Shown: positions 1-10,722 of the stretch, piece after piece
Numbering within the stretch: the first letter of the stretch is position 1
How the letters are laid out: each line of letters opens with the position of its first letter
Position numbers and translations under genes: made by a program
Virus record (IMG/VR): IMGVR_UViG_2531839662_000041
Location: 1-10,722 of that record
Origin: a virus
Lineage: Duplodnaviria > Heunggongvirae > Uroviricota > Caudoviricetes
Reading direction: 5' to 3' (one strand)
DNA: 10,722 bases
Notes under the pieces: model-generated
What the model saw: the letters and a program-made list of their open reading frames with translations, nothing else
Databases searched by the model: none
Told to the model about the DNA's origin: nothing

Positions 1-1701
1 TTAAGGTGTGGGTTGTGCCTCTTTGGTTGAGGGTTGCGTCGTTGCTGACTTAACGGTCGGACGCGTCGCCGGAACATTGTCACACGGTTGCTCTTTCGGG
101 CAGATCAAATCCAGCATTTTCAGCGTCACGCCATTGGTCCAGCCAAAGCCATCCTGTAATGGATATTCGCCACCGCCGCCCCCCGTTCCGGTGGTGCTGA
201 CATCATATTTTTCCACCAGCTTTTTCTCCCGGTCATAGGTGTGCTGAACATTGGTCAGGAAGTGCCAGCTAATGTCCATCGCCACCTCTTTTTGCCCGTA
301 GTTTTGTAATCCTTCTGTCGCGACCCACTGTAACGGTGCCCAGCCATTTGGCGCATCCCATTGTTGCCCACTTTTCACCGACGTGGTGTTCAGGCCGCCG
401 GGTTGCAGCAGATGTGTTTTCGTCGCCGTCGCCATTTTGTTGGCGCGATCTTTCGCTGCCGCATTGACGTACAGCGGGAACAGGGCGGCCGCGGTTAACT
501 GATTGCGCACTTTATGACTTTTCAGGTCGTAATCGGCATACCAGCCTTGTTGATCGTTCCACAGGTATTTTTCGATCCCTTTTTGACGGGCATTTGCCAG
601 CGTTTCGTACTGGTTTGCCATCGCGTTATCTCCGGCAGCTTTGCTGGCGCGGGCGAGGATTTTTTCCATTTTAAACATCAGGCTGTTCAGATCGACCGGT
701 ACGATGCTGGTGGTGCGTAAGGTATTTAACTGCTGCGGGTTGTCCATCCAGCGCGAGCTGAAATCCCAGCCAGACGCAGCGGCAGAGCGCAGGTCGCGGT
801 AAATTTCAGTGGCAGGTCGATTCGGATTGCTTTTGGCGGTGGCAATATCTTCCACCCATGACTCTGGTCGTGGCGTATCGCGATCGTCCCAGTAGCGGTT
901 GAGAAGGGTACCATCCTGAAGTTTGACAACGCGTTTTTCCTGTTGTCCGGCTTGCAGGTTTTCAACACCGTCCATCCAGTAAGCATATTCTTTTTGCATT
1001 TGCGGCAGGTATTGCTTCAACGCGGCATCGCCTTCATGCTGCGCCAGTAACTCTACCATCAGGGCAAAGAAGGGCGGTTGCGAGCGGCTTAAATAGTAAC
1101 TGCGGTTGCCGTTGGGAATATGACCGTAAGTGTCTATTTCATGAGCAAAATTGGCCACCATATTCGCGACTTTATCCCAGTGACCGCTTTCGGCAAGTCC
1201 TAACATGGTGAAGTAACTGTCCCAGTAATATACCTCGCGAAAGCGTCCGCCCGGCACGACATAAGGTTCCGGCAGCGGTAACAGAGAATCCCATTTTTCG
1301 GTGTTTTCGGTAGAACGCGTTAATACCGGCCAAAGTCCGTCAATATGTTCGCGCAGTGACTGCCCCTCTGGCGGAACATATTTCTCGCCTTCTTTCGGCA
1401 GGGTGAAATTGACGTTAACGAAATGGCGCAGATCAAATCCGCTCTGGTTTTGCTGCATCCGATAATCAGCAAGGATCATCAGCGGATCGCTGTTCGGCAC
1501 GGCATCGGCAAAGGTTTTTTGGTCCGGAAAAAGTTTGGCGTTTTGCACATCATTAAACAGCGGCCCTAATAAAATATCAGGCGGCTGTGGTGTTACCGGT
1601 GTTTCTTCTGCCTGCACCGATAGCGCAGCGAAACACAAAAAGATACAGGCTGGAATTAACGCCATTTTTTGCGGGCGAGAAGGTGCGGGGGATTTCATCA
1701 A
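1..1701 (-). CDS. treA: Periplasmic trehalase TreA (complete, 566 aa; stop codon at window bases 1-3)
   Basis: The 566-aa translation begins [30 protein letters not shown], a typical Sec signal peptide, and continues with sequence I recognise as E. coli periplasmic trehalase (GH37), including the Gly-rich [21 protein letters not shown] segment near the C-terminus. Length matches the ~565-aa TreA I recall. Identity is from memory, not a search. Confidence 0.95.
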
Positions 1702-1831
1702 TCATTCTCCTTTGGCGAAACCGAATAAAACGGTATTCAAGTATCAGAAAACCTTAGTTCAGGATCGCACTAGCTGCATGATCGAAATCTCATTCTGCGA
1801 ACTGTCAGGCATTTTAGAAAAGGGAATGTAT

Positions 1832-1853
1832 TGATTCACTTGAAGTACGAAAA
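1832..1853 (+). other. MuA transposase end-binding site L1 (attL)
   Basis: TGATTCACTTGAAGTACGAAAA matches the 22-bp MuA end-site consensus TGNTTCAYTNNAARYRCGAAAA at every specified position, 5 bp in from the TG terminus. Confidence 0.85.
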
Positions 1854-1936
1854 AAACCGGGAGGACATTGGATTATTCGGGATTTGGCGGGATTAGATTT
1901 TGTGGGGCTTGCAAGCCTGTAGGACAGATTTTAGCC

Positions 1937-1958
1937 GTTACATCTTGAAACGCGAAAG
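1937..1958 (+). other. Degenerate MuA end-binding site (L2-like; right half matches consensus)
   Basis: The right half CTTGAAACGCGAAAG fits YTNNAARYRCGAAA(A/G); the left half is diverged. Its position relative to L1 corresponds to where I recall Mu L2. Confidence 0.45.
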
Positions 1959-1976
1959 ATTGTTGGAAACAGCTTT

Positions 1977-1998
1977 TGATTCATTAAAGACACGAAAA
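1977..1998 (+). other. MuA transposase end-binding site (L3-like)
   Basis: TGATTCATTAAAGACACGAAAA matches the 22-bp consensus with one mismatch. Confidence 0.7.
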
Positions 1999-2165
1999 GC
2001 AATTACTTCACGCATCATTTCAAGTACAGCTTCAAAAATGCTTCAAAAACGGTAACAACCAGGCTTTCAGCAAGTGATGTGTGTCAAAAATAATCATCAC
2101 TGTTTGGGTATCTTACATATGTAATTACCTGGAGTGAAGTTTATGTCTTAGCTATTACCTGGTTG

Positions 2166-2690
2166 TTATACAGCTTTCTTTACATCGTTTTCTCTTACAG
2201 GGAAATTATGTTCTTTGCCTTCATACTGAGACAAAATCTCTCTCACTTTTTCCGGTGGTAATGCCTGAAGAGTTTGCAGGGTTTTCTGTTGCTCCACAGT
2301 AATCCCTAATGCCTCTAATGCCTTATCTTTACTGACAATTGTAGGCATAAGTCCTTTAATCCCTGCTACACGAATGATCTCCACAGCTGCGGCCTGCTCA
2401 TCTGGTGTTAAGAAGCTCATTGCATAAATTAGCCTCTCATCAACTGTATGGGCGATTGATGTATGCACTGGTTTATCAGAAAGTGAGGCTCCTTTAATGG
2501 CCCTGCGTGTTTCTTCTGGCAGACTGTTGATGTGATACTCATAAGCGACACCTTTCCCACCGTGACGCTGACGTTTTACCCAATCTTCCGCCACAGCTTT
2601 CCTGGTAATGTTAGTCGCCAACTTTGGTACACCAGGCATCCCTTCCAGCTCTTTCGCATTAAACCATTCTTTGATTTCAAAAGACATCAT
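2166..2690 (-). CDS. c: Mu/D108-type prophage repressor c (174 aa)
   Basis: Divergent from ner and immediately right of attL, as in Mu. The C-terminal region (LPPEKVREILSQYEG ... VKKAV) resembles the Mu repressor C-terminus as I recall it (LPEEKRKEILSKYG ... VKKAV). The N-terminus ([25 protein letters not shown]) is paralogous to the N-terminus of the transposase in this window. ATG start with an AGGA Shine-Dalgarno 6 nt upstream on the minus strand. Confidence 0.85.
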   Translation of the reverse strand: MMSFEIKEWFNAKELEGMPGVPKLATNITRKAVAEDWVKRQRHGGKGVAYEYHINSLPEETRRAIKGASLSDKPVHTSIAHTVDERLIYAMSFLTPDEQAAAVEIIRVAGIKGLMPTIVSKDKALEALGITVEQQKTLQTLQALPPEKVREILSQYEGKEHNFPVRENDVKKAV

Positions 2691-2875
2691 TTAAAATCCT
2701 AGTGATTTCAATAGAGACAAAATAAATTCATATAAAAATCATGCCGTTATATAAAATCATGGCAAATCATTTCAAATCACTATTGATTTGGAAGTGATTC
2801 CACACTACATTGCACGATATGCCGTGAGCTACTTTATAGCGTAGCTCACGGGGGAATCTGAAAGGATTACATGAA
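2691..2875. promoter_or_regulatory. Divergent c/ner intergenic region: presumed operator sites (O1-O3 / transpositional enhancer) and the Pe and Pc promoters
   Basis: A 185-bp AT-rich spacer between divergent repressor and ner genes. It contains tandem imperfect direct repeats (CATATAAAAATCATGCC at 2728-2745; TTATATAAAATCATGGC at 2747-2763) and several copies of a GTGATTT/AAATCAC core in both orientations (2702-2708, 2774-2780, 2783-2789, 2794-2800). In Mu this region carries the operators, IHF site and early/repressor promoters. Exact site boundaries are not determinable by eye. Confidence 0.6.
2822..2851. repeat. Perfect 11-bp inverted repeat (CCGTGAGCTAC / GTAGCTCACGG) with 8-bp spacer, 25 bp upstream of the ner start codon
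   Basis: Read directly from the sequence: the arms at 2822-2832 and 2841-2851 are exact reverse complements. Confidence 0.9.
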
Positions 2876-3097
2876 ATGCATATGAATAAAAGAACTAACC
2901 GCCAAGATTGGCACAGAGCTGACATCGTTGCAGAGCTACGAAAACGCAATATGTCACTAGCTGAATTGGGAAGATCTAATCATCTTTCGTCTTCAACATT
3001 AAAAAATGCTTTGGATAAGAGATATCCGAAAGCGGAGAAAATCATTGCAGATGCACTGGGAATGACACCGCAAGATATTTGGCCGTCTCGATACTAG
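2876..3097 (+). CDS. ner: Ner-like DNA-binding protein (negative regulator of early transcription; Nlp/SfsB family), 73 aa
   Basis: The translation ([23 protein letters not shown] ... [19 protein letters not shown]) closely parallels Mu Ner as I recall it (DWHRADVIAGLKKRKLSLSALSR ... IWPSRY). AGGA lies 9 nt upstream of the ATG at 2876. Position is immediately upstream of A, as in Mu. Confidence 0.88.
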
Positions 3098-3104
3098 GTG
3101 CGCT

Positions 3105-5093
3105 ATGAAAGAATGGTATACAGCAAAAGAGTTGCTCGGTTTGGCAGGTTTACCAAAGCAAGCCACTAACATTACACGTAAGGCACAAAGAGAAGGCTGG
3201 GAGTTCAGGCAGGTTGCAGGGACTAAAGGTGTATCATTTGAATTCAATATCAAATCATTCCCTGTCGCATTACGTGCTGAAATTCTGTTGCAACAAGGGA
3301 GAATTGAAACCAGTCAGGGGTATTTTGAAATCGCCCGCCCCACGCTGGAAGCCCATGATTATGATCGTGAGGCACTGTGGAGCAAATGGGATAACGCCAG
3401 CGATTCCCAGCGCAGACTTGCTGAAAAATGGTTGCCTGCGGTTCAGGCTGCAGACGAAATGCTGAACCAGGGGATTTCAACGAAAACGGCATTTGCGACC
3501 GTTGCAGGACATTACCAGGTCAGCGCATCCACTTTGCGAGACAAATATTACCAGGTACAGAAGTTTGCGAAGCCTGACTGGGCGGCTGCGCTTGTTGATG
3601 GACGTGGTGCATCCCGTCGCAACGTTCACAAAAGTGAATTTGACGAGGATGCCTGGCAGTTTCTGATTGCAGATTATCTGCGACCAGAAAAACCCGCCTT
3701 TCGCAAATGTTATGAGCGTCTGGAACTGGCAGCCCGCGAGCATGGCTGGAGTATTCCCTCCCGTGCCACGGCCTTTCGCCGGATTCAGCAACTGGACGAG
3801 GCAATGGTTGTTGCCTGCCGTGAAGGTGAACATGCACTGATGCATCTGATACCGGCACAGCAGCGAACTGTGGAACACCTGGACGCCATGCAGTGGATCA
3901 ACGGCGACGGTTATCTGCATAACGTCTTTGTACGCTGGTTTAACGGTGATGTGATCCGCCCGAAAACATGGTTCTGGCAGGATGTGAAAACCCGAAAAAT
4001 TCTGGGCTGGCGCTGCGATGTGAGCGAGAACATTGATTCAATTCGCCTCTCGTTCATGGATGTGGTGACACGCTACGGCATCCCGGAAGATTTTCACATC
4101 ACCATTGATAACACCCGTGGGGCAGCGAATAAATGGCTGACGGGGGGCGCGCCCAATCGTTACCGCTTTAAGGTGAAAGAGGACGATCCAAAGGGACTGT
4201 TTTTACTGATGGGCGCGAAAATGCACTGGACAAGCGTTGTTGCCGGTAAAGGCTGGGGCCAGGCAAAACCTGTTGAACGTGCTTTCGGTGTTGGTGGGCT
4301 TGAGGAATACGTTGATAAGCATCCGGCACTGGCTGGCGCATATACGGGGCCAAATCCGCAGGCAAAACCTGATAACTATGGCGACCGTGCTGTTGATGCA
4401 GAGCTGTTTCTGAAAACCCTTGCTGAAGGTGTGGCGATGTTCAATGCCAGAACAGGCCGTGAAACAGAAATGTGCGGGGGCAAACTCTCGTTTGATGATG
4501 TTTTCGAGCGTGAATACGCCAGAACGATTGTGCGTAAGCCAACCGAAGAACAAAAACGGATGCTGTTACTGCCTGCCGAAGCGGTGAACGTTTCACGCAA
4601 AGGCGAGTTTACGCTTAAAGTTGGCGGCTCCCTTAAAGGCGCGAAAAACGTTTATTACAACATGGCGTTAATGAATGCAGGCGTGAAAAAAGTTGTGGTC
4701 AGGTTTGATCCGCAGCAGCTACACAGCACAGTTTATTGCTACACCCTGGACGGTCGGTTTATCTGTGAAGCGGAATGTCTGGCACCTGTTGCATTTAATG
4801 ATGCTGCGGCAGGCCGTGAATATCGCCGCCGCCAGAAACAACTGAAATCTGCAACTAAAGCAGCCATTAAGGCGCAGAAACAAATGGACGCGCTGGAAGT
4901 TGCTGAACTGCTGCCGCAGATAGCCGAACCAGCAGCACCAGAATCAAGGGTTGTTGGTATTTTCCGGCCTGTGGGTAACACAGTACGGGTTAAATATCGC
5001 ACCCCCGATGATAAATACGAACCCGCTCGTGATGAATATCTGAATCAGTCACTGGATATTCTGGAACAGAAAAGACGTAAAAAAGCCATTTAA
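3105..5093 (+). CDS. A: Mu-type DDE transposase A (662 aa)
   Basis: Length is close to MuA (663 aa as I recall). The catalytic DDE triad is visible in conserved context: D268 in [15 protein letters not shown] (codon at 3906-3908), D335 in [14 protein letters not shown] (4107-4109), and E391 in AKPVERAF (4275-4277), matching MuA D269/D336/E392 spacing. The N-terminal winged-helix region is paralogous to the repressor N-terminus. Confidence 0.95.
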
Positions 5094-5131
5094 TTAACGT
5101 TTAAACAAAATTTAATTACGAGGTTATTCAG

Positions 5132-6091
5132 ATGAATATTTCCGATATTCGCGCAGGACTGCGCACGCTTGTAGAAAATGGAGAAACCACGCTGACACGC
5201 ATCGCCAGTGAATCAGGCGTGGCCCTGAGCACAGTCAGTGGTTTTGTGAATGATAAATATAACGGCAACATGGAATCAGTCGGGCGCACACTGGAACGCT
5301 GGCTGGAAAACTATCACCGCGCAGAAGAACTGCCGGAACCCCCGCGTTTTGTGGAAACTGCAACAGCCCGTCAAATCTGGACAAGTATGCGTTTTGCTAA
5401 TCTGACCGGAACCATTGCTGTTATCTGCGGTAATCCAGGAGTGGGTAAAAGCGAAGCAGCCCGTGAATTTTGTCGCACTAATAATAATGTCTGGATGATC
5501 ACCATTGCGCCATCCCGTGCCAGTACGCTGGAATGTCTGACTGAACTTGCCGAAGAGTTGGGAATGAATAATGCACCATGTCGCAAAGGACCGCTTTCCC
5601 GTAACCTGCGTCGCCGCCTGAAAGGAACGCAGGGACTGGTCATTGTTGACGAAGCTGATCACCTTGACACCGAAGCGCTGGAAGAGCTCCGTCTGTTACA
5701 GGAGTCCGCCTGTATTGGTCTTGTTCTGATGGGGAATCACCGTGTTTATTCAAATATGACCGCTAATGGCGACAGAACAATTGAGTTTGCCCGTCTGTTT
5801 TCCCGTATTGCAAAGCGCACAGCAATTAATAAAACCAAAGAAGACGATGTAAACGCAATTGCGGATGCCTGGCAGATTACCGGGAAAAATGAACGGGAAT
5901 TATTACAGCAGATTGCACAAACGCCTGGTGCGCTCCGCATTATGAATCAAACGCTGCGCCTTGCTGTTATGAATGCCTTCGGTAAAGGCGAACGTGTTAA
6001 TGAGGATTATCTGCGTGAGGCTTACAAAGAGTTAGACCAGGACGTTGATGTTTCGATGCTGCTGGGTGTGCAAGGGGATGCTGAATCATGA
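5132..6091 (+). CDS. B: Mu B-type AAA+ ATPase (target DNA activator for transposition), 319 aa
   Basis: N-terminus [16 protein letters not shown] and most of the protein closely match MuB as I recall it. Walker A GNPGVGKS and Walker [11 protein letters not shown] are present. GAGG Shine-Dalgarno 8 nt upstream of the ATG. Confidence 0.95.
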
Positions 6092-6315
6092 TGTCACGGA
6101 ATATCAAAATGGCGACGGAAGTAAAGACCTGGTTACAGGAGCGCGGCAGCCACGTCAACGAATCCTGGCTGGGCGTGGCCCGCCCGGTGCTTGAAATTAC
6201 CTGCCCGCCACCGGAGCTGGTCAGAAACGCTGTCAGGATTATGGAGCATAAATCAGGGGTTGCCCGTTCCGTATGGACGGCCCGCCTTAATGGTTGCCAG
6301 ATTATCTGGCGTTAA
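6088..6315 (+). CDS. kil: Small early protein in the kil position (75 aa); putative Kil-like host-killing / cell-division inhibitor
   Basis: The start codon overlaps the B stop (ATGA at 6088-6091), which suggests translational coupling. The size (75 aa) and position immediately after B match Mu kil (~74 aa as I recall). I cannot confirm sequence identity from memory, so this call is positional. Confidence 0.5.
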
Positions 6316-6347
6316 TAACGGCTTATTTATTTGTGAGGAATAACAAA

Positions 6348-6617
6348 ATGGCAAAAGTAATCTTTGAATTTAACAATACAAGAAATATTGAGTTTCAGGA
6401 AAATGGAGGTTTTGCCGTAAATATGAATGTGCGACTGGAAGAATCCTCACCTGAGGACCAGACCGGGCCACATGATGTAATGGCAGGCATCATCAAGAGC
6501 ATGGCTCCTGAAATCATTAAAAAAGCGACCGAGGATTTGTTGAAATCAGCCAGGGAGCTTGGGCTGGAAGCCGAAGGCGAGTTATTCCGGTATAACCCGG
6601 ATGCAGCTAAATATTAA
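6348..6617 (+). CDS. Hypothetical early-region protein (89 aa)
   Basis: The ORF-track entry 6294..6617 starts on TTG. The more plausible start is the ATG at 6348 (MAKVIFEF...), preceded by GAGGAA 9 nt upstream. No recognisable motif. Confidence 0.5.
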   Translation: MAKVIFEFNNTRNIEFQENGGFAVNMNVRLEESSPEDQTGPHDVMAGIIKSMAPEIIKKATEDLLKSARELGLEAEGELFRYNPDAAKY

Positions 6618-6637
6618 TTCGCAAAGGAACGCTGACA

Positions 6638-7057
6638 ATGAAAGCCAAAATCAGAAACGAAATTCAGGCATTAATTCGGATTAAAGAGCGTAATAGCAAT
6701 GGTGGAGACTTGCGCGAATTTATTTGCGCGCGCGAAGTTGAGGGATATGGCGAAAAGACTTACCTGATTGCATTCGACCATTACAGCATTTGTGCGCGTT
6801 ATTGCGGGGAGGCGGTATTCCGCGCCATTACGTTTGGCAATGCCTTCAATGTGGATTTATGGGAATACGTCATGGACCGTGAATACATCAGCGCGTCAGA
6901 CCCGGACGCACGGGAGCAGTGGCAGAACATCTGGCGCGATTACCGGCAAATGGCGAAAGGCTGGACGCAGGGGACGTATTCTTCCCTTGCCCTGAAAGCG
7001 GTTCAGTTATCGCTGCGGCATGTTCCGTCAGTACGGTTTGAACTTGCGGTGCACTGA
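6638..7057 (+). CDS. Hypothetical early-region protein (139 aa), Cys/His-containing
   Basis: ATG start with GGAA 8 nt upstream. It sits in the same-strand operon-like run between B and gam. Contains a C-x-...-HYSICARYCGE cluster that might bind a metal. Function unknown. Confidence 0.55.
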   Translation: MKAKIRNEIQALIRIKERNSNGGDLREFICAREVEGYGEKTYLIAFDHYSICARYCGEAVFRAITFGNAFNVDLWEYVMDREYISASDPDAREQWQNIWRDYRQMAKGWTQGTYSSLALKAVQLSLRHVPSVRFELAVH

Positions 7058-7074
7058 TACAGGAGGGCGACATC

Positions 7075-7363
7075 ATGATACCCCCTCGTAAAAGATGGTC
7101 ACGTGAAGACCGGGAATTTATCGAAGCCAGTGTCGGGAAAATGACTGTTGAAGAAATGGCGAAAAAAACTGAACGTTGCCCCAACCGCCCTACAGGCACA
7201 TGCCAGAAGACACGGAATATCGTTGTGTGCATACCGGGTCAGTGAGCACGACAAATATTTGTGTCGTGAACTTTATAAAGAAGGGCTGGATATTCATGTC
7301 ATTACCCAAAAGATGGAATTAAGCAATCGTGCTGTATCCAGCATTGTATACAGCGAATATTAA
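7075..7363 (+). pseudogene. Frameshifted (or slippage-dependent) helix-turn-helix early gene: frame 1 (7075-7248) and frame 2 (to 7363) join at an A7 tract (7162-7168)
   Basis: A strong AGGAGG Shine-Dalgarno 8 nt upstream of the ATG at 7075 opens a reading frame giving MIPPRKRWSREDREFIEASVGKMTVEEMAKK, after which the translation becomes unprotein-like (TERCPNRPTGTCQKTRNIVVCIPGQ) and stops at 7248. The +1 frame from the A7 run gives LNVAPTALQAHARRHGISLCAYRVSEHDKYLCRELYKEGLDIHVITQKMELSNRAVSSIVYSEY. Joined, ...TVEEMAKKLNVAPTALQAHARRHGISL forms a textbook helix-turn-helix. Removing one A from the A7 run restores a single ~95-aa ORF. Confidence 0.6.
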
Positions 7364-7383
7364 TTAACAGGAGCTTTATTTAT

Positions 7384-7908
7384 ATGGCTAAACCAGCAAA
7401 ACGAATCAAGAATGCCGCAGCGGCTTATGTTCCACAGTCCCGCGATGCCGTGGTATGTGATATCCGCCGGATTGGTGACCTGCAACGCGAAGCGGCACGA
7501 CTTGAAACGGAAATGAATGACGCTATCGCTGAAATTACAGAGAAATACGCCTCACAGATTGCGCCGCTAAAAACCAGTATCGAAACCCTTTCAAAAGGCG
7601 TTCAGGGATGGTGTGAAGCGAACCGTGACGAACTGACGAACGGCGGCAAGGTGAAGACGGCGAACCTGGTAACCGGCGATGTGTCATGGCGTCAGCGCCC
7701 ACCATCGGTAAGTATTCGCGGTGTGGATGCGGTGATGGAAACACTGGAGCGTCTTGGCCTGCAACGCTTTATTCGCACGAAACAGGAAATCAACAAGGAA
7801 GCGATTTTACTGGAACCGAAAGCGGTCGCAGGTGTTGCCGGAATTACAGTTAAATCAGGCATTGAAGATTTTTCTATTATTCCGTTTGAACAGGAAGCCG
7901 GTATTTAA
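7384..7908 (+). CDS. gam: Gam, host-nuclease inhibitor / DNA-end-binding protein (Ku-like), 174 aa
   Basis: The translation MAKPAKRIKNAAAAYVPQSRDAV ... LETEMNDAIAEITEKYA ... GWCEANRDELTNGGKVKTANLVTGDVSWR ... FSIIPFEQEAGI is near-identical to Mu Gam as I recall it, and the same length (174 aa). AGGAG Shine-Dalgarno upstream. Confidence 0.93.
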   Translation: MAKPAKRIKNAAAAYVPQSRDAVVCDIRRIGDLQREAARLETEMNDAIAEITEKYASQIAPLKTSIETLSKGVQGWCEANRDELTNGGKVKTANLVTGDVSWRQRPPSVSIRGVDAVMETLERLGLQRFIRTKQEINKEAILLEPKAVAGVAGITVKSGIEDFSIIPFEQEAGI

Positions 7909-7950
7909 TATCACCATTAATATTTAATTAGTTCACTTTCTTTTAATTAT

Positions 7951-7980
7951 GGCGCGATGCGTCAGGGGATTGCTCGCGCC
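7951..7980. repeat. Inverted repeat GGCGCGA ... TCGCGCC (7-bp arms, 16-nt spacer) in the gam-downstream intergenic region
   Basis: Read directly from the sequence. No T-tract follows, so it is not a canonical intrinsic terminator. It could be an RNA stem-loop or a protein-binding site. Confidence 0.5.
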
Positions 7981-8006
7981 TGAAACAGATTACTGAGGAA
8001 TAAAAA

Positions 8007-8546
8007 ATGGTTGATGCAAAAGTTCTGAACGGTGTCAGTACATTATTACGGGCTTACGGACGTCTGACCTGTGGCGTTCTGGCGGAAAAAATGAATATGC
8101 CACCTTCTTCAATGGTGTATTTCCTGCGTGATGCGGTTGATGCCGGAGTTCTCACTGAATGCAACGGATTTTATGACGTTCCGCGCCCTCGTCCGACGCC
8201 GCCAGTAAGACGAAACGCAACGGAGCACCCCGCTGTTGATGATGCTCAATGGTGCGCTTTCCGCCGCTCTTTGCCCTGGCTGGAAGGCAATGCCATTCCG
8301 GCACTGGCAAAAGAATTTGCGACAGGCGTACTGACCTGCGAGTCGGTTTACATCGTTGCTGAAGTGGATGACGAGATGTGCAAACAGGGGATGCCCCGTT
8401 TTGTGATGGCGTATATCGATATCCGACTGGGACGTTTTATTTGTGGCTCCAGTGGCTGGAATATCACCGACCACGTCCTGCGCTATCTCATTCTTGATTA
8501 TTCACCGGTTCCGGCGGCAACACAGGATGTCAGCGAGCATGGTTAA
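8007..8546 (+). CDS. Hypothetical early-region protein (179 aa) with an N-terminal winged-helix-like segment and a Pro/Arg-rich linker
   Basis: ATG with GAGGAA Shine-Dalgarno 6 nt upstream. The N-terminal LRAYGRLTCGVLAEKMNMPPSSMVYFLRDAVDAGVLTE resembles a MarR/Lrp-type winged helix, followed by a PRPRPTPPVRR linker. Function unknown. Confidence 0.6.
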   Translation: MVDAKVLNGVSTLLRAYGRLTCGVLAEKMNMPPSSMVYFLRDAVDAGVLTECNGFYDVPRPRPTPPVRRNATEHPAVDDAQWCAFRRSLPWLEGNAIPALAKEFATGVLTCESVYIVAEVDDEMCKQGMPRFVMAYIDIRLGRFICGSSGWNITDHVLRYLILDYSPVPAATQDVSEHG

Positions 8547-8721
8547 GTCAATTGGCTTTGTCCTGCTGGTTGGTACTTGCGGGAATGATGCCTGTGATGC
8601 CATTCCGGTAACAGAAAAAATCTGGCCCACAGAACAGGCATGTATGCAGGTGATGGAGCGCATACAAAAACGTTATCCCAGTGAAATCTTTTATTGCGAA
8701 GAGGTATTAAGAAATGAATAA
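8527..8721 (+). CDS. Small hypothetical protein (about 60-64 aa) with a hydrophobic N-terminus; start uncertain (ATG at 8527 or 8539)
   Basis: The ORF-track entry 8443..8721 extends upstream in a frame that overlaps the previous gene. The plausible product is MSASMVKSIGFVLLVGTCGND... Its stop codon overlaps the start of the next ORF (ATG 8714 / TAA 8719-8721), suggesting coupling within the operon. Confidence 0.35.
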   Translation: MSASMVKSIGFVLLVGTCGNDACDAIPVTEKIWPTEQACMQVMERIQKRYPSEIFYCEEVLRNE

Positions 8722-9103
8722 CGCAGAGAAAAATGAAATTAAATCCGCATCCGCCAGCACCAGAAAGCATCTTCATGATTTTTATGTTGCCTATAACCAG
8801 TGGTTAAAAAATGGTGTACCAGAAACAGAGGGTGAAATATTTGTTCAATATTCAGGATTATGTACAAATGCTTGTCGTTATTTTGACGAAATCGGAGTGG
8901 ATACCGAAGATATATTAGAACAATTACGTGCAGATTTTATCGCGAACGAGTTGGATGAATTATTACCTTTCAATGAAAGTGGAACGCACTATCATGAGGA
9001 ATGCAGACTTGGCAGATGTCACCTGAATTCTGCTCGTGTGGCATGGGTCGAAAAACACTGCATTAAGGAGATGGGACATAATGAGCCGCACATCCCTGAT
9101 TAA
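8714..9103 (+). CDS. Hypothetical acidic Cys/His-rich protein (129 aa), encoded in a visibly AT-rich segment
   Basis: ATG at 8714 overlaps the preceding small ORF's stop. The translation is rich in D/E and carries C-x3-C (CTNAC) plus HYHEEC-x4-CH ... HC, possibly a zinc-binding fold. By hand count of three 60-bp blocks (8714-8893) G+C is about 40%, 37% and 28%, against roughly 50% in neighbouring genes. These are eye estimates. Confidence 0.6.
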   Translation: MNNAEKNEIKSASASTRKHLHDFYVAYNQWLKNGVPETEGEIFVQYSGLCTNACRYFDEIGVDTEDILEQLRADFIANELDELLPFNESGTHYHEECRLGRCHLNSARVAWVEKHCIKEMGHNEPHIPD

Positions 9104-9632
9104 ATTAATTCATGTCGCCCGTCGGGAATTGCAACTTGACGATGACACTTACCGCGCCTTTCTGGTGCAGTGCACGGGCAAAACCAGTTGCCGCGAGCTG
9201 TCCGTTGCACAACTGGAACGGGTGCTCGATGCCATGAAAGAGCGCGGTTTTAAGAAGCAGAAAAAACATCCCCGCCGTCGCTTTAAGGGGCATGTCACAC
9301 CACGCGAGAAGATTTACAAAATCTGGCAGCAGATGTTTCTTGATGGTTTCGTCTCCGATATCAGCGACGCCGCGCTGGACAAATACGTTGAACGCCTGAC
9401 GGCCAGACGTAATGGCGGTCAGGGTGTTTCCACGCTGGCCTGGTGTCACGGGGAATCGTTGCAGGTTGTGCTCGAAACGCTCAAACAGTGGCACATGCGC
9501 TGCATCCGTGAAGCCTTTGCCCGACATGGTGTGCCTTTACCTGTAAGCCCATCCGGGCGGGAACTGCGCGGCTATGATGCACTGACCAGTGCATATGCCC
9601 GCGCACGAAACAGCGGGAGAATTGCTGTATGA
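9081..9632 (+). CDS. gemA: GemA-like protein (Mu gp16 family, DUF1018), 183 aa
   Basis: The ORF-track entry begins at a GTG (9036). The likely start is the ATG at 9081 (MSRTSLIKLIHVARRELQLDDDTYRAFL...), with AGGAG 10 nt upstream. Position immediately upstream of mor, with an ATGA stop/start overlap into mor, matches Mu gemA-mor. Sequence identity is recalled with moderate certainty only. Confidence 0.7.
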   Translation: MSRTSLIKLIHVARRELQLDDDTYRAFLVQCTGKTSCRELSVAQLERVLDAMKERGFKKQKKHPRRRFKGHVTPREKIYKIWQQMFLDGFVSDISDAALDKYVERLTARRNGGQGVSTLAWCHGESLQVVLETLKQWHMRCIREAFARHGVPLPVSPSGRELRGYDALTSAYARARNSGRIAV

Positions 9633-10078
9633 AACAGATGAAAGAGCAGGATTTGTTCGAAGACCTTCGGGACGACAGCGTTCTGGAATATCTTCATGAT
9701 TACCAGGAAAACACCGCTTATCCGGCGTTACTTTCTGAACTGAACGCACTGCTGCGTAAAGAGCTGGCCCGGATTGGCGCAGACCCTGCCCATTCCCTTG
9801 AGCTGGTTGTGGCGATTTGTCGCCATATCGGCGGGATGCAGGTTTATGTTCCGAGGGGGAATATTCTGGAGAATCTTGTCCGGGATATGCGTATCTGGCG
9901 TGATTTTAACGGCCATAATATTCCTGAACTGGTTCAGCGTTACGGGGTGACGTATAAAACCGTCTACAAGGCCATCAAACGGATGCGACGTCTGGAGCGC
10001 AATAAATACCAGCCGGATTTGTTTTACCTCTCCCCGAACCTGCCTCACCCCGTTCGTCGTCCGCCACGACGCCCTTAA
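9629..10078 (+). CDS. mor: Mor-family middle-operon transcriptional activator (149 aa)
   Basis: DLFEDLRDDSVLEYL ... PALLSELNALLRKELARIGADPAHSLELVVAICRHIGGMQVYVPRG ... RDFNGHNIPELVQRYGVTYKTVYKAIKRMRRL parallels Mu Mor as I recall it (DLFGDLQDDTILAHL ... PALLAELNDLLRGELSRLGVDPAHSLEIVVAICKHLGGGQVYIPRG ... VYKAIRRMRRL). It has a C-terminal HTH. ATG overlaps the gemA stop. Confidence 0.9.
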   Translation: MKQMKEQDLFEDLRDDSVLEYLHDYQENTAYPALLSELNALLRKELARIGADPAHSLELVVAICRHIGGMQVYVPRGNILENLVRDMRIWRDFNGHNIPELVQRYGVTYKTVYKAIKRMRRLERNKYQPDLFYLSPNLPHPVRRPPRRP

Positions 10079-10084
10079 TCAATG

Positions 10085-10108
10085 AAGCCGGTAAATCCGG
10101 CTTTTTTT
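10085..10108 (+). terminator. Putative rho-independent terminator downstream of mor
   Basis: Stem AAGCCGG (10085-10091) pairs with CCGGCTT (10097-10103) around a TAAAT loop, followed by a 7-T run (10102-10108), 7 bp after the mor stop codon. In Mu the early transcript terminates after mor. Confidence 0.7.
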
Positions 10109-10164
10109 ATGCCTCCGGCACCATGAAGCAGACCACGTTTAACTCTGCTTCACAGGTGCTTTTT

Positions 10165-10722
10165 ATGGAAAATCTAAAATTATATCTGGCCTTTGAGCGT
10201 GCGCTGAATTTTATTCTGCGTCCTGATATCGAAGGCGTCTATGTCAATGACCCCACTGACCGTGGCGGAGAAACCAGGTACGGCATCTCTGACCGCCGCG
10301 ACGGTGTGATTGACGGCAAAACTGACGTCAACGGTGATGGTAAACCCGACACCCGCATTAAGGATTTTACCCGCGAACAGGTTGCGCAGATTTACTGGCG
10401 CGATTACTGGCTGCCTGCCGGGTGTGACCAGTGGCCTGACAGAGTGGCGCTTTTTGTGTTCGATGCGGCGGTTCAGCATGGTGTTAAAAAAGCCATCAAA
10501 CTTTTGCAGGAAGCCACTGATATCAATGCCGATGGCATCATCGGCCCGCGCACCCGCAGGGCCGTGAACCTGGCTGACCAGAACTGGTTGCTGACCCGCT
10601 GTATTGTCCGTCGTTCCCGCTTTTATGCCGAAATCATCAAATCAAAACCCGCCCAGGGCAAATACCTGAACGGCTGGTTTAACCGCATGGAAAAACTGAC
10701 CGACGCCTGTCTGGAAATCATC
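10165..10722 (+). CDS. GH108-family lysozyme-like protein with peptidoglycan-binding domain (5' partial; 186 codons, runs off the window)
   Basis: Not in the supplied ORF track because no stop codon occurs before the window end. The ATG at 10165 has AGGTG upstream. The translation MENLKLYLAFERALNFILRPDIEGVYVNDPTDRGGETRYGIS ... DFTREQVAQIYWRDYWLPAGCDQWPDRVALFVFDAAVQHGVKKAIKLLQEATDINADGIIGPRTRRAV carries the GH108 signature (EGGY-like VNDP-DRGG-T-YGI, FD-AVN-G) and the PG_binding_3 motif (DGIIGP-T). I translated all 186 codons by hand and found no stop. Confidence 0.8.
   Translation, partial: MENLKLYLAFERALNFILRPDIEGVYVNDPTDRGGETRYGISDRRDGVIDGKTDVNGDGKPDTRIKDFTREQVAQIYWRDYWLPAGCDQWPDRVALFVFDAAVQHGVKKAIKLLQEATDINADGIIGPRTRRAVNLADQNWLLTRCIVRRSRFYAEIIKSKPAQGKYLNGWFNRMEKLTDACLEII

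Follow-up and report, generated by a model that had tools for sequence, protein, structure and literature searches.

Gene content of the treA locus and the left boundary of the prophage

The window, i.e. the whole stretch of 10,722 nucleotides analyzed here, opens with a complete host gene, treA, encoding periplasmic trehalase (1-1698, minus strand; UMNF18 RefSeq annotation; thousands of E. coli genomes match it at 100%). The gene is still joined to 128 bp of its native upstream DNA from the dhaM-treA intergenic region (1699-1826), which is identical to the empty site of strain 300709. The last five bases of this flank, GGGAA (1822-1826, plus strand), form the left copy of a target-site duplication and are followed by the 5'-TG terminus of a prophage (1827-1828, plus strand), which as base 1 of attL aligns to base 1 of both D108 and Mu. 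The remainder of the window carries the early genes of the prophage, from the repressor gene c through the transposition genes A and B to mor, and ends inside an endolysin gene.

The window coincides with positions 1459222-1469943 of the chromosome of E. coli UMNF18 (NZ_AGTD01000001.1) except for two substitutions in 10,722 positions (window 182 and 7416; C versus T and C versus A in RefSeq UMNF18). This porcine ETEC strain is the nearest complete genome and was used as a proxy for the prophage beyond the window; its locus (L001) begins at window base 1, and the coordinates of the two are the same. The draft contig ABSWMJ010000043.1 (GCA_040133625.1; L029) is 100.000% identical to the window over its entire length, and AAQXIM010000069.1 (GCA_011819865.1; L021) is 100.000% identical to positions 1-9093. 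The window therefore probably stems from a clone-mate or from a different version of the assembly, and not from the RefSeq entry.

The left part of the window is matched in 5,324 of 5,426 complete E. coli genomes. In all 29 prophage-free genomes among the matches listed the host match ends at 1827, the last matched base being the T immediately after GGGAA at the uninterrupted locus. The alignment with phage D108 opens at the same position with D108 base 1; 336 of the first 339 nucleotides are identical (three differences), and attL as a whole shows 99.1% identity to D108. Similarity to Mu is perfect over the first 54 nucleotides, counted from Mu base 1, and falls to about 80% over the first ~360 nucleotides of the prophage. 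Since the host match stops where the alignment to D108 base 1 starts, the boundary at 1826/1827 is real and exact to the base, and 1827 is the left end of the prophage. A first-pass annotation made from the letters of the window had drawn the transition from host DNA to a Mu-like left end at this very base, in the upstream region of treA, and had named continuity of the following bases with host sequence in related strains as the finding that would overturn it; the genome comparison revealed no such continuity. The prophage separates dhaM from treA, its left end being located 128 bp upstream of the treA start codon.

Any effect of the insertion on treA is conjectural. A promoter scan of positions 1600-3150 yielded matches no more numerous than in shuffled sequences. 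In strains JKHS016 and AST198, window positions 1-1827 are matched in two pieces spanning about 1.36 kb beyond the query length, and an IS110-like ISSfl8 transposase is annotated under this match, suggestive of an independent IS insertion in this treA region.

Right end, target duplication and MuA-binding sites

The right end and the second GGGAA were read in UMNF18, two SNPs away from the window, the contigs 100% identical to the window stopping inside the prophage. The UMNF18 element terminates at L001 32640 in ...CGCCGCTTCA, 30.8 kb downstream of the left end, and GGGAA follows; the junction reads ...GTTTTTCGTGCGCCGCTTCA/GGGAA/TTAAAGGG at L001 32640/32641-32645. The last 20 nucleotides of the terminal sequence ...TTTCGCGTTTTTCGTGCGCCGCTTCA are identical to those of Mu and D108, and the closing ...GCTTCA gives the element the TG...CA termini of Mu. 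Beyond the right-hand GGGAA the dhaM-proximal sequence TTAAAGGGATAAAT continues. In the empty treA-dhaM site of strain 300709, ...TTAGAAAAGGGAATTAAAGGG..., GGGAA occurs as a single copy, and removal of the element with one GGGAA restores the uninterrupted locus: the 500 bp of left flank ending in GGGAA plus the 500 bp after the right GGGAA form an exact 1,000-bp match in that strain. The 5-bp duplication had been anticipated from the left end, and it was found at the right end as expected. The anticipated distance of 35-40 kb was too long, the right end lying 30.8 kb downstream in UMNF18 and about 33.7 kb in an undeleted copy (see below). Mu has a weak target preference, N-Y-S-R-N; GGGAA fits only two of its three specified positions on either strand, a point against Mu-type insertion.

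All six MuA-binding sites, L1-L3 and R1-R3, were found at positions equivalent to those in Mu and with 17 to 22 of 22 positions identical to the Mu sites. Site L1 (1832-1853, plus strand; TGATTCACTTGAAGTACGAAAA) is identical to Mu L1 in 22 of 22 positions and has no mismatch to the consensus. Site L2 (1937-1958, plus strand; GTTACATCTTGAAACGCGAAAG), a weak-consensus site with two mismatches, agrees with Mu L2 in 17 of 22 positions, and L3 (1977-1998, plus strand; TGATTCATTAAAGACACGAAAA), with one mismatch, agrees with Mu L3 in 18 of 22; all three left sites are identical to those of D108. The TG terminus and the coordinates of the three sites are exactly those proposed in the first-pass annotation. 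In UMNF18, R1 and R2 are each identical to their Mu counterparts in 21 of 22 positions and R3 in 20 of 22. The Mu arrangement is preserved, with R1 and R2 on the minus strand and the inverted R3 on the plus strand.

We scanned for the 17-nt MuA-site consensus YMYNWRAARYRCGAAAR, taken from the D108 record, allowing at most one mismatch. The window contains three matches (0.20 expected; none of 200 shuffles reached three) and a scan over 43.8 kb gives six (0.45 expected). The third match in the window, at 4631-4647 inside gene A (CCTTAAAGGCGCGAAAA, one mismatch), is probably due to chance or a by-product of coding sequence. Among species-representative genomes, the exact 40-nt left-end sequence has no match and the 22-nt L1 site occurs in one E. 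coli and one Shigella flexneri genome only; the left-end 40-mer is present in 10 IMG/VR contigs.

Immunity and transposition genes

The c repressor gene (2166-2690, minus strand; 174 aa, Pfam HTH_Tnp_Mu_1, E=3e-51) is of the D108 type, its product being 98.9% identical to D108 c and 29% identical to Mu c; at the nucleotide level the identity to D108 is 99.2%. The divergent control region between c and ner (2691-2875) matches the D108 c-ner intergenic region in 177 of 185 nucleotides (95.7%) and is predicted, by homology to Mu and D108, to contain the operators, the transpositional enhancer and the promoters for the early genes and the repressor. The ner gene (2876-3097, plus strand; 73 aa, Pfam HTH_35) encodes a protein 100% identical to D108 Ner versus 53% for Mu Ner.

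The transposase gene A (3105-5093, plus strand) encodes 662 aa with four MuA Pfam domains, HTH_Tnp_Mu_1, HTH_Tnp_Mu_2, DDE_2 and Mu-transpos_C. Its DDE triad is conserved, D268, D335 and E391 aligning in identical contexts with D269, D336 and E392 of Mu. The whole protein is 97.9% identical to D108 A and 92% identical to Mu A, and the identity is unevenly distributed. Residues 1-75, the operator/enhancer-binding domain I-alpha, agree with D108 at 100% of positions and with Mu at 46%; for domains I-beta/gamma and II the identity to the Mu protein is 100%, and domain III shows 86%. Within gene A one breakpoint follows domain I-alpha and a second precedes domain III; another lies near gp11.

The product of the next gene, the transposition ATPase B (5132-6091, plus strand; 319 aa, Pfam AAA_22 and Phage-MuB_C), is 77% identical to the B proteins of both Mu and D108. 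In Mu, domain III of A contacts B. Both A domain III (86%) and B (77%) have diverged from Mu as well as from D108, which may reflect co-variation of the A-B interface.

The immunity type of the prophage is that of D108, judging by the sequences of c, Ner, the operator region and A domain I-alpha. The left end had been described as Mu-like yet not identical to Mu, with a c/ner/A N-terminal region of the D108 kind, and this description holds for attL, c, Ner and MuA residues 1-75 alike. A similar relationship was reported for phage SfMu, whose c and Ner proteins are 89% and 98% identical to those of D108 versus 24% and 47% to those of Mu (PMC4406740); the c and Ner identities found here match this published pattern for SfMu, D108 and Mu, and the D108-like assignment of the left end is supported.

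Downstream of B lie homologues of kil, gp7 (D108-type) and gp8 (6088-7057, plus strand; 85%, 93% and 81% identical to the D108 proteins, respectively). The following homologue of Mu gp9 (7075-7363, plus strand), which is annotated as a D5-like regulator, is split by a +1 frameshift in a run of seven adenines (7162-7168); relatives have six. A homopolymer error of 454 sequencing was considered and rejected: since the A7 allele also occurs in independent assemblies, in prophage copies at other chromosomal insertion sites, it is real and apparently tolerated.

The host-nuclease inhibitor gene gam (7384-7908, plus strand; Pfam Phage_Mu_Gam) encodes a protein 92.5% identical to Gam of Mu/D108, and a gp11 homologue (8007-8546, plus strand) shows 86-89% amino acid identity; blastn similarity to Mu and D108 stops at about 8518, within this gene. 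In place of Mu gp12-gp15 there are two lineage-specific ORFs of 60 and 129 aa (8539-9103, plus strand) with no tblastn match to Mu or D108; the 129-aa ORF, the one of the pair that was scanned, has no Pfam match. The gemA (gp16) homologue (9081-9632, plus strand; 82-84% identity, Pfam GemA) is followed by a gene for a Mor-family transcription activator of 149 aa (9629-10078, plus strand; Pfam Mor, E=4e-30), 63% identical to Mu Mor and 32% to Mu C.

A hairpin with a T-run, read directly from the sequence (GAAGCCGGTAAATCCGGCTTTTTTTAT; 10084-10110, plus strand), resembles a terminator, and the Mu and D108 records likewise have an annotated terminator after mor. The last gene of the window (10165-10722, plus strand; gene end at 10752) encodes a GH108 endolysin with a PG_binding_3 domain (Glyco_hydro_108, E=6e-23) and no similarity to Mu Lys. 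The genes c, ner, A, B, gam, gemA and mor are all full-length. An Rfam search of the window gave no matches.

Mosaic structure of the element

Comparison by blastn with Mu and D108 covers about 31% of the element, namely 1827-8518 at 86-92% identity, patches at about 72%, and the com-mom-attR segment (L001 31704-32640 in UMNF18) at 88%. Against D108 alone, about 9.5 of 30.8 kb is aligned at 71-92% identity, the left 4.5 kb being 92% identical, and our own sum gives an overall nucleotide similarity of roughly 27%. By ICTV convention, whole-genome nucleotide similarity is about 95% within a species and about 70% within a genus; on this measure the element would fall outside both the species Muvirus mu and the genus Muvirus.

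The similarity is concentrated at the two ends. On the left, ~6.7 kb resembles Mu and D108; on the right, the final ~0.9 kb (com, mom, R3-R2-R1 and the ...CA terminus) resembles Mu. Mom is 96% identical to Mu Mom, D108 gene 56, located between mom and attR, is absent from the element, and the last 120 bp resembles Mu and not D108. Late proteins between these parts are 27-61% identical to Mu, with 27-50% for head and tail proteins. Tblastn searches with Mu gp6, gp7, gp12-15, gp19, gp20, Lys, gp23-25, G, gp35-38, U, S' and Gin found no match in the element; the gp7 present is of the D108 type. By sequence comparison, the ~23 kb between the left and right Mu-like parts is that of a different Mu-like myovirus lineage. 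The initial description as a D108-like relative stands for the early region; it does not extend to the late region or to the right end, which is of the Mu type without gene 56.

No isolated phage in the collection searched shares the right 24 kb at the megablast level. The closest isolated-phage relatives of the virion module are Kp4866-3 (OK490420), a Klebsiella phage, the Vibrio phage martha 12B12 and the Shewanella phage MuM16-2, with genomes of about 33 kb versus an estimated ~33.7 kb for the intact element. The major head protein is 73% identical to that of Kp4866-3, 57% to that of martha 12B12 and 58% to that of MuM16-2, versus 37% for Mu T. The likeness to Kp4866-3 concerns the virion module, with nucleotide similarity over just ~2 kb at 74%. 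A candidate relative of the late module, the Mu-like prophage Sp18 of E. coli O157 Sakai, was unsupported at the nucleotide level: the head module is present in just 53 of 5,426 complete genomes, too low a number for a module common to the O157 lineage, provided that this lineage is well represented among them.

The tail-fibre region (L001 28083-31570) contains two sets of fibre and assembly genes on the same strand, with neither an invertase nor an inverted G segment, and the fibre genes vary among related prophages. The UMNF18 annotation shows no invertase gene from the fibre genes to com, and the G segment and Gin of Mu have no counterpart there.

Mu has two activators, Mor and C, and its mom gene is C-dependent. 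In the element no second Mor/C-family activator was detected, the Mu C query aligning only to the mor gene (32%). A 136-aa ORF downstream of gp18 in L029 was considered as a candidate for C and rejected, its product resembling a membrane protein. As a single Mor/C-family activator was detected, the lineage may control its late genes differently from Mu.

In the undeleted, 35.4-kb prophage of strain STEC346 an extra ORF of 165 aa lies between mor and the endolysin gene (L005 11500-12048 versus window 9999-10076). It encodes a hydrophobic N-terminus, has no Pfam match and is absent from the window, and looks like the gain or loss of a moron. A mor-to-endolysin deletion in the window had been suspected, but the alignment shows just the extra STEC346 ORF, and Mor of the window is complete.

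Among the named phages, D108 (NC_013594 / GQ357916) and the element have the same gene order from c to gp11 and near-identical left ends and immunity genes. They differ in B and, beyond ~8518, where only short patches and com-mom are similar, in the endolysin, head, tail and fibre genes, in the G segment, gin and gene 56 absent from the element, and in its Mu-like right subterminus. With Mu (NC_000929) the element shares the TG...CA termini, the positions of the six MuA sites, the 5-bp duplication, the right-end sites, A domains I-beta to II, Mom and Gam. It differs in c, Ner, A domain I-alpha and the late proteins, which are distant or without homologue, and it lacks the invertible G segment of Mu. 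SfMu (KP010268) likewise has D108-type c and ner on a Mu-family backbone and matches window 1827-8503 at 88.5%. Its authors report that, of 55 proteins, 46 exceed 90% identity to Mu and 44 to D108, that its late structural genes are mostly conserved, and that the phage, whose repressor is D108-like, can be induced by UV (PMC4406740). The late genes of the element are not conserved in this way, and only com-mom-attR of its right 24 kb is shared with SfMu.

Distribution of the element and state of individual copies

The index of the assembly collection lists the identical A protein in 89 blocks, and nine different host contexts were identified. Prophage DNA 100% identical to the window was found at unrelated chromosomal sites in three further loci, L022, L024 (CP060109.1) and L028, over 7,267, 7,267 and 4,489 nt (window 1827-9093 in L022 and L024, 1827-6315 in L028). 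The left end is at position 2723 of each, and the flanking pentamers are CTCGC, CCTGG and CTGGC. Further pentamers beside copies with the identical A protein include TCGGT and others, and the neighboring host genes are unrelated. Among 5,426 complete genomes, 40 have the D108-type left end, which adjoins a wide variety of host genes. Thus, as in near-random insertion, the same element occupies different chromosomal sites in different strains. The occurrence of an identical genotype at several sites suggests, at the sequence level, recent activity and spread. The late module occurs in about 46 of the 5,426 complete E. coli genomes, where its usual partner is the D108-type left end (40 genomes); in a single case, STEC346, it is combined with Mu-type c and ner.

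The treA junction is common to at least six assemblies (UMNF18 and the draft contigs L021, L029, L033, L034 and L035), and therefore the treA insertion marks a clone. Each of two look-ups listed 10 to 17 further similar places for this junction.

In UMNF18 the prophage measures 30,814 bp. A 2.9-kb segment is missing between the genes for the major head protein and the tail sheath (L001 19766-19779); it comprises homologues of gp35-38 and two thirds of the sheath protein from its N-terminus, and the deletion junction shows the microhomology AACCCGCA. The segment is kept in 45 of 45 related prophages and was found nowhere else in UMNF18. L029, with the same treA junction, continues past the head gene like the undeleted relatives. 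Because this window-identical copy is without the deletion, the latter is, by sequence comparison, specific to UMNF18, and the intact size would be about 33.7 kb.

The RefSeq record of UMNF18 flags baseplate and fibre genes as frameshifted. With the 2.9-kb deletion and several annotated frameshifts, at least the UMNF18 copy is predicted to be unable to make virions. An initial suggestion that the prophage of the window is itself virion-defective, based on the UMNF18 deletion and frameshifts, was withdrawn, as L029 is 100% identical to the window and undeleted. UMNF18 is one nucleotide shorter than L029 at about position 10994, and some of its frameshifts may be sequencing errors. Substitutions between UMNF18 and L029 cluster in the terminase and protease/head genes (L001 13948-15046 and 18007-19725), which suggests patches of recombination or gene conversion. 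Both the left-end query and the head query also match UMNF18 partially at a second place.

Alternative explanations

We regard it as nearly certain that window position 1827 is attL base 1 of an integrated, mosaic Mu-type transposable prophage of the D108 immunity type, located between dhaM and treA of E. coli of the porcine ETEC type. Both termini, the six MuA sites, the 5-bp duplication, the exact empty site, intact c, ner, A and B with the DDE triad, and the varied insertion sites were all observed. A plain D108 prophage, i.e. a strain of Muvirus mu colinear with D108 throughout, would explain the 92% identity of the left 4.5 kb, the 99-100% identity of c, ner and attL, and the terminal 20 nucleotides identical to D108 at both ends. 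It is refuted by comparison over the whole element and keeps hardly any probability, since less than a third of the element aligns, B is only 77% identical, many Mu late genes and gin are unmatched, the head and tail proteins are distant from those of Mu, gene 56 is missing and the terminal 120 bp on the right is Mu-like. Still less probable is a junction that does not reflect integration at all. Mu left ends carry 50-150 bp of host DNA, far less than the 1,826 bp of colinear chromosome in the left flank of this element. The presence of host DNA at the ends of Mu virion DNA (PMC4406740) would be compatible with a packaged virion end, and the origin of UMNF18 as an older shotgun assembly with an assembly chimera of treA and phage reads; against both, the right flank resumes exactly where the left flank ended, with the 5-bp duplication, and the same junction was assembled independently in UMNF18, L021, L029, L033, L034 and L035. 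We graded these two explanations as already refuted, and the statement of the first-pass annotation that the element is integrated rather than a packaged end is borne out by its chromosomal location in UMNF18 and by the same treA junction in many draft assemblies.

A different question is whether the integrated element is a decaying, non-inducible cryptic prophage that retained its ends and early genes and lost the lytic cycle. We consider this possible but rather unlikely. The UMNF18 copy, with its 2.9-kb deletion of a segment universal among the relatives and its frameshifted baseplate and fibre genes, agrees with such decay, as does the frameshift of the gp9 homologue in the window itself. 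Set against this, L029 is undeleted at the same treA insertion, some UMNF18 frameshifts may not be real, and none of the genes c, ner, A, B, gam, gemA and mor is truncated. Moreover, the exact genotype, including A7, recurs at no fewer than three other chromosomal sites, which argues for recent productive spread.

Proposed mechanism and implications

In every respect that could be tested the element is a Mu-type transposable prophage, and it is a mosaic that lies outside Muvirus in overall similarity and in the G segment. By homology with Mu, a MuA tetramer on L1-L3 and R1-R3 would join the two 3'-CA ends to target phosphates 5 bp apart, at a target chosen by MuB, and gap repair would produce the GGGAA duplication. 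The D108-type c repressor would bind operators between c and ner, which would double as the transpositional enhancer, and keep the early promoter off. Derepression would lead to expression of ner-A-B and replication by transposition, and Mor would then activate the later genes. Repressor function, operator function and inducibility we infer only by analogy.

Textbook knowledge already includes Mu-type ends, 5-bp duplications and the heteroimmunity of D108 and Mu, and Mu-like prophages are routinely annotated in E. coli. In this respect the boundary and the D108-type assignment, although correct, are ordinary and open no long-standing question; they fix the prophage boundary exactly at window 1827 and identify a treA-dhaM locus interrupted in a porcine pathogenic E. 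coli clone. The twist is that the virion genes come from a different Mu-like lineage.

We think it somewhat more probable than the contrary that these prophages form a coherent lineage of E. coli transposable phages, with no cultured member in the collection searched, active in livestock-associated E. coli and meriting a genus apart from Muvirus. Such a lineage would combine a D108/Mu transposition and immunity cassette, a Mu com-mom-attR segment, a virion module similar to those of Kp4866-3 and martha, and a GH108 endolysin, would lack G inversion and show a single Mor/C-type activator, and it would be currently active because 100% identical copies occupy several unrelated sites. The element provides an example of modular exchange among Mu-like phages, in which a D108 immunity and transposition cassette with Mu-type ends is joined to an unrelated virion module, and, if the lineage is real, it would offer a natural test of the exchange of the MuA/MuB/ends module between virion backbones.
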